From the IMG/VR virus record IMGVR_UViG_2877982868_000014: 64,000 bases of DNA; one strand, given 5' to 3'. Below are positions 45,001 through 48,000 of the stretch, piece by piece. The DNA is from a virus. Its lineage: Duplodnaviria; Heunggongvirae; Uroviricota; Caudoviricetes. Numbering within the stretch: the stretch's first letter is position 1; each line of letters starts with the position of its first letter. Made by a program: the position numbers.

Positions 45001-48000
45001 TGGTATGATTTCTCATAGCTACCTCGATACTGTTGCTATCGTTGGTGGTCAGAGGCTGCGAAAGGACGGCAATCCTTTTCAGCCTCGTTTGCATTGAGTG
45101 ATAAACACTCAACTGGATTCCAGTATAATCACTAAGTGGAATCCACTTCAAGCGTTTTGTTTTGGTCTTTTTCGTGTATACTGGATTCCAGTAATCACAA
45201 AGGGAACCAGAAATGGAAAGAGACCATATCAATAACAAATCACAGAAATTACAGGCTCGCGCCCCGCATGAAGTTGTTGAGGCTATGGAGCAAGTAAAAG
45301 AAACAGGCGAGAGCACTGCGCAATTTATCGTTACAGCCATGCGAGGCGAGATCAAACGCCGCCAGCGCCGCAAGGCCAAAGAAGCGGAATAGTCCACCAG
45401 CAAGCCAGCACACTGATCACATTGCCCACCAGCCAACAAATCGCTATGATGTTTGGGCTTATGTTTAGTGTTTTCCCATTGGCGACCTCTGATCCGGGTC
45501 GCCTTTGTTTTGTCACTGAATGCGGTTGCCAAAGTAAAACTCAGGCTGATATTCACGTATCAGCCTTTTTTCTTCTTCCTCCAGCTCACGCTTTTTGCGC
45601 TTACATGCCTGTAGCTCCCTCCCCTTCTGACTGGCACTTAACTGATATTGCTCTTTACGGCGAGAAAAGTCCTGTAATGCGCCCCACGGGATACCATAAG
45701 CCCCCGTTTTTCTGATTCCTGGTATCACATTCCTGAATACCCAGTTACTGAAACGATGGGCGAACGTGCCAGGAGTAACAGCTTTCCGACTTCTGGCGAT
45801 CAGCTTGTAAAAACCGGATTCAGAAATGAGGCTATGATTTGGATTTCCTCGAATACCGTAGCTTAAAGCGACGGTTTTCTTTTCATCCGCATCTAGTGCT
45901 TTTAGAGCATCGCGTGAGTTACTTATTTCCAGAGCAACACAAACATCCTTTGCAACAAACCACGGATCGCCGTTCAGATACACCACGCGAACGTTCACAC
46001 TATCAAAGCGCAGAACGACCAGATCACGAAAATCACAGAATTTTTTTACATGACGTGCGTCACCCTTGCCCGTCACGGCAATATTTTTATTCATTTCTTT
46101 TTTACCTCACATACAAAAAACCCCGCATTGCACGCGGGGTATGAAAGATATTATTAGTGGGGATTGGCCTGTTCTCGTTGTTTATCTAACCATGCTTCTA
46201 CATCTCTACGGTGCCAGGTATGTCGTCGTCCAATTCTGAACGGCTGAGGAAAACCATTATTCTCATCTTTCCAGAAATTGATGAATGCACTCATTGCTCC
46301 ATATCGCAAGATTTTCATTACGTCTTTAGTAAATAAAATATCTTCATTGGTATTCATTTGCTGAACCTCCTCAACCATTTACTACTCTTAAACCTTTCAT
46401 ACCACCGGATCTATTAATTACCCCTTTTCTCGCATCATCAAAAAAATCACCGACCCATTGCATCATGATCTTACGCTGTTCTAGATAAATAGTTCTATTA
46501 TAAATATCTCTTATTTTATCACCACTTTTATGCGCCAATGCAGCCTCGATTACATCGGGGTTAAATCCCTCCTCATTTAAAAGCGTACTCCACATTGAAC
46601 GAAAACCATGTAACGTTACAATCCCTTTGAACTTACTGGCAGCAATTGGGGTCTTGATAGTATTCCTCCCCATAGGCGCATCTTTTGTTCTGGAGGAAAA
46701 AAACACATAACGCCCTCTTTTTATTTCCTGCATTGTTCTGAGGATACTAATAGCCTGTGATGACAAGGGAACAACATGTTCACGATGGCATTTCATTTTA
46801 TGCGCGGGGATAATCCACAAGCCAGAATCAAAATCAATCTCTGACCACTCTGCTTTAATCGCCTCACCTGGCCTGACCATTGTCAATATCTGGAATAAAA
46901 GTGCATTATGAGCTATTTGATAGGTATGAGGCACACTATCCCACCAGCTCAGAAATTCAGGCAATCTTTCAACAGGTAGTGCTGCTAATGATTTATTTTT
47001 CTTTCCTGTGAATGCAGTCTTTATCTTAAGTAATGGATTTGCTTTCAATGCTCCACAATTTACAGCATAATTCATAATTTCATTTAATCTTGATATTAAT
47101 TTTTTTTGCAACGCATTCTTATCGGATACGGCATCCAGAGCATTAATAGCTACTGGTGCTGTAATTTTTTCTATACTGTACTTACCAAAGAAAGGAACAA
47201 GATATTTGTATACTTCATATTCGATATTATACAGCGTAGGTTTCCGCAATTCAGATCCCTTTTTAAAAGCGAACCATGCATTAGCAACAGCTTCAAATGT
47301 CTGTAGATTTTTTAGTGACATCTCAATTTTACGATTTTTCTTCTCCGTCACTGGATCAACTCCACGTGCAATCATTCGCCGAAGTTCATCACGTACTTCC
47401 CGTGCTTCCGCGAGTGAGAATTCAGGAAAACGTCCTATCGTGTATGTCTGCCGTTTCTTCGTTATCGGATGGCTATAACGGAAACGCCACACTTTCCCAC
47501 CGGCTTTACTCACATTCAGCAATAAACCGAACCCATCATAAACGGCATAGTCCTTTTCACGTGGTTTCATCCCCTTAACTTCAGTCACGGTTAATGGCTT
47601 TACCGACATCTATCGCCCTCATTTTTTAGTCCGTCATGTAGTCCATTCAAGCCAATAACAAGCGATAAACTAACTCATTATCAAGCAAAGAGAGGAAACT
47701 CATAAAATCACAACTCATTGAAAAGACTATGAAACGACACCAGAACATACAAACAGGTAAGAAATGTACCCTACATCCAAAATGACGCAATCCGGGAGTT
47801 TCGTGGCGTTCCGGTGATACTGCCGTCCGCCGCCGCCCGTTCACCTTCACGAAGCCAGATCCCCTGGTTATTCAGTTCGCGTTTCTGCTCAGGGGCAATC
47901 AGCCCGCGACAATGCGGACACATCAGACGGGCAGCCTGACCGGCAGCCACAAAATCCGGGTTATTCCGGTATCCGGTCATGTTATCCATCACCGGCTGAA

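Follow-up and report, generated by a model that had tools for sequence, protein, structure and literature searches.

Phage-inducible chromosomal islands (PICIs) of Gram-negative bacteria have been described without an identified master repressor and are controlled by AlpA, a DNA-binding activator that is essential for their induction (PMC6092414). In the Escherichia coli island EcCICFT073, helper phages induce alpA, and over-expression of AlpA alone results in excision and in runaway replication that depends on pri (PMC6092414). The pathogenicity islands of Staphylococcus aureus (SaPIs) and Gram-positive PICIs have Stl/Rpr repressors, the genes of which lie at the border between int and rep, divergent from the excision/replication operon (PMC6092414). 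Here, we describe a regulatory locus in a satellite of the Gram-negative, helper-embedded type, contained in a 64,000-nt stretch of Caudoviricetes DNA (IMG/VR record IMGVR_UViG_2877982868_000014; the whole stretch is referred to as the window). Next to its replication operon, this satellite carries a small gene (45213-45392, plus strand) for a 59-amino-acid (aa) protein of the YlcI/YnfO family, preceded by three palindromic sites. We consider it probable, at roughly three chances in four, that this protein is an autoregulated ribbon-helix-helix (RHH) repressor with a lambda-like three-operator switch at the satellite's replication operon. What was computed here comprises the sites and how far they are conserved, the way they are placed with respect to conserved promoter hexamers, their co-variation with the protein and the latter's fold assignment. 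The evidence, all of it computational, supports a conventional kind of switch formed by an uncharacterised RHH family, in satellites for which no repressor is recognised in the literature searched.

In the immI region of phage P22, a secondary control region of a mobile element, the RHH repressors Arc and Mnt act at the divergent promoters Pant and Pmnt, with operators that overlap these closely spaced promoters. The satellite module has in common with Arc and Mnt a small protein (53-83 aa), in its case a predicted RHH protein, and the alignment brings the R-x-P-x-E-V motif at the strand/helix junction and the G-x-S turn into the same register. It differs from them in lacking a significant sequence or Pfam match to either protein, in having one RHH gene where P22 has two, and in having three 11-bp sites (at spacings of 45 bp and ~23 bp) in place of a single 21-bp or 17-bp operator. 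Its target operon starts with an icd-like gene and also carries replication genes, and its host is a satellite, not a phage. Likeness to the lambda right operator (OR; cI/PRM versus cro/PR) lies in the arrangement: three related sites between divergent (here putative) promoters, two of them on the lytic or replication promoter and one on the repressor's own weak promoter. The third site deviates in several satellite classes, as the weaker OR3 does in lambda, and specificity cassettes appear to be swapped between otherwise similar elements, as immunity types are. Unlike in lambda, the predicted fold is RHH and not helix-turn-helix (HTH), the spacing is different, and no Cro-like partner was identified. 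As with Stl/Rpr, the gene is divergent from the replication operon at the int/rep border; those repressors are HTH proteins of larger size, with de-repression through bound helper proteins, whereas the satellite encodes a 59-aa predicted RHH protein and has AlpA as an essential activator. Finally, P1 immI (c4 RNA-icd-ant) and the CI RNA immunity of P4 are similar in that an icd homologue comes first in the operon, behind a structured leader. In contrast to these, an Rfam search of 36000-49000 (E <= 1) found no C4 or isrK match, returning only spurious microRNA (miRNA) and small nucleolar RNA matches, and control in the satellite would apparently be exerted by a protein at the promoter.

Three candidate operators between putative divergent promoters

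The three candidate operators share a common core, sTG-N5-CAs. O1 (ACTGGATTCCAGTA, 45112-45125; core CTG-GATTC-CAG at 45113-45123) abuts and overlaps the -10/start region of a putative leftward promoter, while O2 (AAGTGGAATCCACTT, 45134-45148; core GTG-GAATC-CAC at 45136-45146), a perfect 15-bp palindrome with a central A, falls within the spacer and -35 of the same promoter. O3 (45179-45193; core 45181-45191) is fused to a putative rightward -10 and would be the autoregulatory site. The sequence of O1 occurs as an exact 14-mer at 45112-45125 and again at 45180-45193, where it extends to the perfect palindrome TACTGGATTCCAGTA. The initial annotation had pointed to a repeated 13-mer, CTGGATTCCAGTA, with a near-palindrome between its copies; the copy at 45181-45193 is where it had been placed, the other starts one position later than given (45113-45125), and the near-palindrome is the perfect one of O2. 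Allowing up to two mismatches, this 13-mer has 7 matches against 1.07 expected, a number reached in 0 of 100 shuffles. The exact 11-mer sTGGAWTCCAs is found only at the three sites within the 64 kb, with one-mismatch matches elsewhere at chance level. Given this excess of matches and the confinement of the core to three places, a chance origin of the repeats is excluded.

The putative leftward sigma-70 promoter, P_left (45122-45151, minus strand), was found by a consensus scan as a -35 TTGAAG (45151-45146), an 18-nt spacer and a -10 TATACT (45127-45122), and would drive the icd-like gene, DUF4222, primase and the genes downstream. Promoter hexamers were counted in 95 distinct regions among related loci. 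The P_left -35, which overlaps the right end of O2, reads TTGAAG or TTGACG in 73 of them; the spacer measures 17-18 nt and the -10 fits TAnnnT in all 95, being TATAGT or TATACT in 56. In 65 regions this -10 shares 1 nt with O1, and in the others the two are 1-12 nt apart. A T-rich tract at 45153-45176 forms an A-rich, UP-like region for P_left on the opposite strand. No further obvious promoter was found for the operon with DUF4222, primase and SSB. For the small gene, a putative rightward promoter (P_right) has a -10 TATACT at 45177-45182 (plus strand), conserved as such in 78 of the 95 regions, and no acceptable -35 (the best one matches 2 of 6 positions in 68 regions). The TATAAT hexamer noticed earlier is present at 45124-45129 and is probably not the one that matters; the conserved -10 at this place is the TATACT on the other strand. 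A plus-strand promoter TAAACA-16-TATAAT was rejected, its hexamers not being kept in other loci. With the promoters taken as predicted, a lambda-type tripartite layout is found in the 95 regions, as a functional likeness and not as homology.

Conservation of the layout extends well beyond the window. From genomes, viral contigs and metagenomes we collected 172 loci, of which 154 could be parsed and serve as the base for the site counts. Three TG-N5-CA sites lie upstream of the small gene in 154/154, from many genera, with an O2-O3 spacing of 45 bp (range 44-46) throughout and an O1-O2 spacing of 22-26 bp or, for one group of classes, 35 bp. An Icd-like gene is divergently upstream in 103 of the 142 loci with enough sequence. 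In 96 loci primase follows farther upstream and in 86 there is a downstream integrase, in each case on the strand opposite to the small gene.

The model island EcCICFT073 (E. coli CFT073, NC_004431.1; our locus L174, in which 474-1053 corresponds to 1380473-1381052) has the same divergent YlcI-like/Icd-like module. Its small gene (1380473-1380652) encodes the strand ALKARVP, is divergent from the Icd-like gene, lies upstream of DUF4222 and primase, and is preceded by two copies of GGTGTGGCCCAC and one of CTGTCCCCCAC. The locus tags of the two module genes, C_RS30120 and C_RS30125, are from a later number series than those of their neighbours, which suggests that both small genes were added to the annotation later.

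A YlcI/YnfO-family protein with a predicted ribbon-helix-helix fold

The small gene had been flagged from the DNA alone as a 59-codon basic ORF and the element's only plus-strand gene. It is real on both counts: the protein (pI 9.7) scores 72.3 bits against the NCBIfam YlcI/YnfO profile NF041551 (cut-off 30), its residues 9-50 covering positions 1-42 of 42, and it is the sole plus-strand coding sequence that RefSeq annotates in the satellite, between the BRO-N and Icd-like genes and likewise under the YlcI/YnfO name. The gene is monocistronic, with a Shine-Dalgarno sequence before it (AAGGGA, 45200-45205, plus strand) and two terminator-like hairpins after it, one of them GGCGACC...GGTCGCC with a T-run (45481-45513, plus strand) and the other at 45543-45566. 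The YlcI/YnfO family is named and uncharacterised, with PHROG 949 listed as "unknown function". Homologues are confined to Enterobacterales and a few relatives, forming 108 clusters at 90% identity in a database search; at E <= 0.001, only 93 clusters at 50% identity were found among 1.84 billion representatives. A tblastn search against 50,697 phage records gave no match.

The protein is probably, though not provably, an RHH DNA-binding protein. It has the pattern of this fold, with a strand of alternating polar and hydrophobic residues at about 11-17 (K12-L-Q-A-R16-A-P), helix A at 19-28 (H19-K28), the turn G31-E-S33 and helix B at 35-58, and distant family members retain it. Invariant in the family alignment are N7, K9, S10 and R16, the G-x-S/T turn at 31-33 and the basic helix end EIKRR(Q)R. 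An AlphaFold2 monomer model (pLDDT 84) begins with an extended N-terminus, followed by helices at 19-28 and 35-58, and its best structural matches are RHH proteins, though nothing in the Foldseek search of the PDB was significant. A profile search of the PDB likewise returned nothing significant. In Pfam, there is no match at E <= 0.01, with the Arc/Mnt families (Arc, RHH_1) not matched; at E <= 10, the protein has weak matches to other RHH families only, including the ParB C-terminal RHH domain. Alignment by hhalign sets R16-A-P18-H-E20-V21 on R13-W-P15-R-E17-V18 of Arc (P = 0.0013, 18% probability), with Mnt in the same register; the Arc query was checked against PDB entries 1ARQ, 1ARR and 1PAR. 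In this register, K12, Q14 and R16 stand opposite Q9, N11 and R13, the base-contacting residues of Arc. Unlike an RHH antitoxin of a type II toxin-antitoxin pair, which shares an operon with its toxin and has a toxin-binding C-terminal extension, the gene is monocistronic, has the Icd-like gene divergent from it, and encodes a C-terminus that is a short conserved basic tail.

Family membership (NF041551; DUF3950) links the protein to the cryptic E. coli prophages DLP12 and Qin. The name-giving YlcI of DLP12 (E. coli K-12; L176, 4252-4446), of 64 aa (RNIRFPNQMIEQ...GSGNFSAWV), has an RHH-like pattern and the same RFP...G-S-G...F arrangement. Its setting is different, beside nohD and the cos region and not in a satellite regulatory region: the gene is divergently upstream of nohD (a terminase small-subunit homologue), with 388 bp of intergenic sequence separating the two. 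An O157 transcriptome paper contains a DUF3950 gene that proved to be a different one, of 228 bp.

Co-variation of the candidate operators with the predicted strand of the protein

The central five base pairs (N5) of the sites vary between elements and are alike at all three sites within one element. They go along with the predicted strand of the protein: K(L/I/V)QARAP is found with GATTC or GACTC, KMSARVP with GCACC, QLNARFP with AATCG, KLEARVP with TCAGC, ALKARVP with TGGCC, SVTARIA with TCTTA, KISVRIP with ACGGA, and QIASRVP with CTAAC. N5 sequences differ by a mean Hamming distance of 0.87 inside one locus, of 1.36 where two loci share a strand and of 3.11 where their strands differ. Strand and N5 share 3.17 bits of mutual information, a value reached by 0 of 10,000 shuffles and, as with the other co-variation statistics, inflated by shared descent. 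Residue 14 is the most informative on site class, with 2.41 bits, its whole entropy, followed by residue 17 (1.68 of 1.68 bits) and residue 12 (1.47 of 1.54 bits, or 95%). Variable helix positions are informative with about half of their entropy, and residue 5 is informative as well. Among the counterparts of Arc Q9, N11 and R13, residues 12 and 14 are the most operator-informative, while residue 16 is invariant. This lends indirect support to a dimer that would read the major groove with a two-stranded sheet, as RHH proteins do.

Two observations, mosaicism and independence from the other proteins of the element, do not depend on descent. As for mosaicism, two loci (L066 and L150) match the window in the icd-like gene (82-100% identity) and in the C-terminal part of the small gene (85-95%); across the operators (45060-45133) their identity is only ~30%, and over the N-terminal coding part it is 50-65%. 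Within the exchangeable cassette, nothing but the N-terminal half of the small gene is coding. As for independence, one locus (L081) is identical to the window in AlpA and Int (100% each) and 90% identical in Bro, yet has the class KKLEARVP/TGTCAGCCA, and another (L091), with 99% identity in AlpA and 94% in Int, has QSVTARIA/TGTCTTACA. The window's own class is also found in elements whose identity to it is only 31-38% in AlpA and 22-39% in Int. AlpA, Icd, Bro, Int and primase were rejected as specificity partners of the sites, since the site class does not track them and the cassette codes only for the N-terminal half of the small gene. The best reading of these comparisons is that the N-terminal strand and the three operators co-evolve as an exchangeable specificity cassette, with no fewer than 15 immunity-like types in satellites that otherwise resemble one another. 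O3 departs from O1 and O2 by one or two bases in several classes, which fits a lower-affinity autoregulatory site; in the window, O3 and O1 share an identical 14-mer.

Two classes can also be present in one genome. In a single assembly of Xenorhabdus innexi DSM 16336, two contigs carry KIQARAP/TGGAGTACA (L005) and KMSARVP/TGGCACCCA (L008), which is what heteroimmune, co-resident satellites would look like.

Proposed switch and alternative explanations

We propose that the 59-aa protein binds as a dimer at each of the three 11-bp sTG-N5-CAs sites; binding, its stoichiometry and the direction of regulation are what we infer from the arrangement. Dimers at O1 and O2 would cover the -10/start and the spacer/-35, respectively, of P_left, a strong, near-consensus promoter, so that occupancy of both sites would keep the icd-like gene, primase and the downstream replication and late genes off. 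O3, over the -10 of the protein's own weak promoter that lacks a -35, would confer negative autoregulation. The overall logic would be that of lambda OR, carried out by an Arc/Mnt-type fold. Relief could come about in two ways. AlpA-activated leftward transcription from alpA or, in the embedded configuration, antiterminated late transcription of the helper may pass through int-alpA-bro, run antisense across the small gene and then enter the operon. On the plus strand, a terminator scan gave good terminators behind the small gene; on the minus strand it gave only a weak one, inside the 3' end of bro, with no convincing minus-strand terminator between bro and P_left. Alternatively, an antirepressor may act on the small protein, for which the adjacent Bro is a candidate.

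Several points weigh against this proposal. The small protein is not the sole gatekeeper in EcCICFT073, where AlpA over-expression alone induces replication; AlpA would therefore act upstream of the RHH switch or bypass it. In the AlphaFold2 monomer, the strand region is modelled as coil or as a short helix. The strand-site code is not one-to-one, as K(I/V)QARAP goes with GATTC, GACTC, GAGTA, GCATC and GAGGC-like centres, so other residues must contribute, for instance in an N-terminal arm. To this comes the inflation of the co-variation statistics mentioned above. Finally, the satellite in the window is partly decayed, because the icd-like gene has a nonsense codon (TGG to TGA at 44954-44956, turning W21 into a stop at codon 21) and three small ORFs near it are frameshifted or interrupted according to RefSeq. 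The nonsense base is private to the source of the window, being absent from all 5,426 complete E. coli genomes searched, in which the best match reaches 98.4% over 61 nt. The initial annotation had suggested a master-repressor/operator module separating the int-alpA-bro side from the replication and packaging operon. Its core holds up through the conserved layout, the promoter overlap, the co-variation with the strand and the independence of the sites from AlpA, Int, Bro, Icd and primase, while a "master" role is hypothetical, given the pri-dependent replication that AlpA over-expression triggers in EcCICFT073 (PMC6092414).

The small protein might bind the sites and still have a narrower role than that of a maintenance repressor, as an autoregulated local silencer directed mainly at a toxic Icd-like cell-division inhibitor or as a Cro-like modulator, with AlpA as the sole life-cycle switch. 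We regard this as unlikely: P_left also heads the operon with DUF4222, primase and SSB, for which no other obvious promoter was found; the small protein is not encoded in an operon with Icd and has no toxin-binding extension, just a short basic tail; and the many specificity classes are typical of trans-acting immunity repressors. Others among the satellite's proteins could be thought to recognise the palindromes, be it AlpA, Bro, Icd or Int, with the small ORF being incidental. AlpA is after all the DNA-binding activator on which PICI induction depends, and some PHROGs families that the Icd-like protein matches carry the label "transcriptional repressor". Against such a binder, elements with AlpA 99-100%, Int 94-100% and Bro 87-94% identical fall into three site classes, differing classes also occur where Icd is 92-100% identical, N-terminus included, and a single class spans AlpA proteins with identities as low as 31-38%. 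With the hypervariable cassette coding for nothing other than the N-terminal half of the small gene, we hold this explanation to be extremely unlikely, and the earlier suggestion that AlpA might bind the repeats is not supported, three site classes being found with 99-100% identical AlpA.

Would the sites rather serve partition or a centromere, packaging or replication, bound by an RHH protein of the centromere or copy-number kind, like ParG, omega or a CopG-type protein? RHH proteins do include centromere binders, the weak Pfam matches include the ParB C-terminal RHH domain, and the name-giving ylcI of DLP12 adjoins nohD. We nevertheless think this very unlikely, as the sites keep a fixed register with promoter hexamers, precise to a single base, across the 95 distinct regions, they number only three, RefSeq annotates no partition ATPase, and the probable origin lies elsewhere, at iterons downstream of the primase gene (41503-41733; PMC10111431). 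That the repeats are a chance or neutral feature has practically no probability left: only the short length of the sites speaks for it, and it is already refuted by the shuffle statistics, by the number, spacing and position kept in 154 loci of many genera, and by all three sites changing in concert within an element.

An autoregulated RHH repressor with three operators would have consequences beyond the window. We tentatively extend it, in a generalisation we hold to be somewhat short of an even bet, to Gram-negative PICIs, cf-PICIs and helper-embedded PICIs, including EcCICFT073, which would then all carry an overlooked RHH immunity repressor with a three-operator switch in at least 15 exchangeable types. 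If so, this would answer a published open question on a global repressor in these satellites, define groups of satellite-versus-satellite immunity, and imply two-tier control, with the activator AlpA above the RHH repressor or bypassing it. No description of the module was found in the literature searched, which included the main PICI papers and covered papers available without subscription. The module is a concrete candidate repressor that is present in the model island EcCICFT073, and it gives the uncharacterised YlcI/YnfO (DUF3950) family a probable function. With the site classes, satellites could be assigned to immunity groups, and the at least 15 natural strand/operator pairs could serve studies of RHH recognition or as orthogonal repressors.

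Genomic context of the satellite

The window closely matches chromosomes of E. coli O157:H7, O145:H28 and related strains, with 99.95% identity across 2 kb. In the matching RefSeq locus, a satellite of ~10.4 kb (about 37357-47773 of the window) sits within the terminase large-subunit gene of a lambdoid prophage and is co-oriented with this gene, the fragments of which (36226-37356 and 47774-48778 by RefSeq annotation) flank it. The ends of the satellite are taken from this split annotation; a search for exact repeats at both junctions, as an attachment (att) core, gave only one 10-mer of uncertain meaning. On the minus strand, RefSeq annotates an integrase, an AlpA-like HTH protein, BRO-N, an Icd-like protein, several small ORFs that include pseudogenes, DUF4222, primase, SSB and a ClpP-like protease/major-capsid fusion, and Pfam and NCBIfam concur with these identities. 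The element is a helper-embedded PICI (HE-PICI), a known type of Gram-negative PICI: it has int, an alpA-like gene, a Bro zone, primase, SSB and late gene(s), all co-oriented, within the 10-20 kb of such elements, and it is inserted in a late gene of the helper prophage. This configuration was defined by Tommasini, Mageeney and Williams 2023 (PMC10111431), who distinguish Integration, Bro, Replication and Late zones in such satellites and propose, for some Bro zones, RNA immunity of the kind seen in P1 and P4; the small gene and its repeats are unmentioned in that paper.

The icd-like gene (44813-45016, minus strand; RefSeq, Pfam and NCBIfam) opens the leftward operon. In the transcript of this operon, the 5' leader (45010-45116, minus strand) is predicted to fold into hairpins at 45113-45093, 45086-45052 and 45046-45021, with a minimum free energy of -34 kcal/mol and a z-score of -3.64, and it matches no Rfam family. 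In 17 loci the middle hairpin is kept, some of the changes in it being compensatory; in the last hairpin, part of the icd-like Shine-Dalgarno sequence is paired. The leader may thus add post-transcriptional control of Icd.

On the other side of the small gene, and convergent on it, lies the BRO-N gene (45513-46094, minus strand), which matches PHROG anti-repressor families (phrog_2593, E = 1e-85). Its product is a candidate inactivator of the helper's repressor or, alternatively, of the RHH protein of the satellite itself. Directly downstream of the primase gene (stop at 41741), an AT-rich region at 41503-41733 contains at least 10 copies of ACTGTTCACC / GGTGAACAGT in both orientations. These iterons are probably the satellite's replication origin, and they gave rise to the spurious Rfam miRNA matches. 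The protease/capsid fusion encoded by the satellite (38242-40131, minus strand) is a ClpP-like prohead protease/major capsid protein (NF045540, 890 bits), and the capsid gene of the enclosing prophage (L001, 147-2126) bears the identical RefSeq product name.

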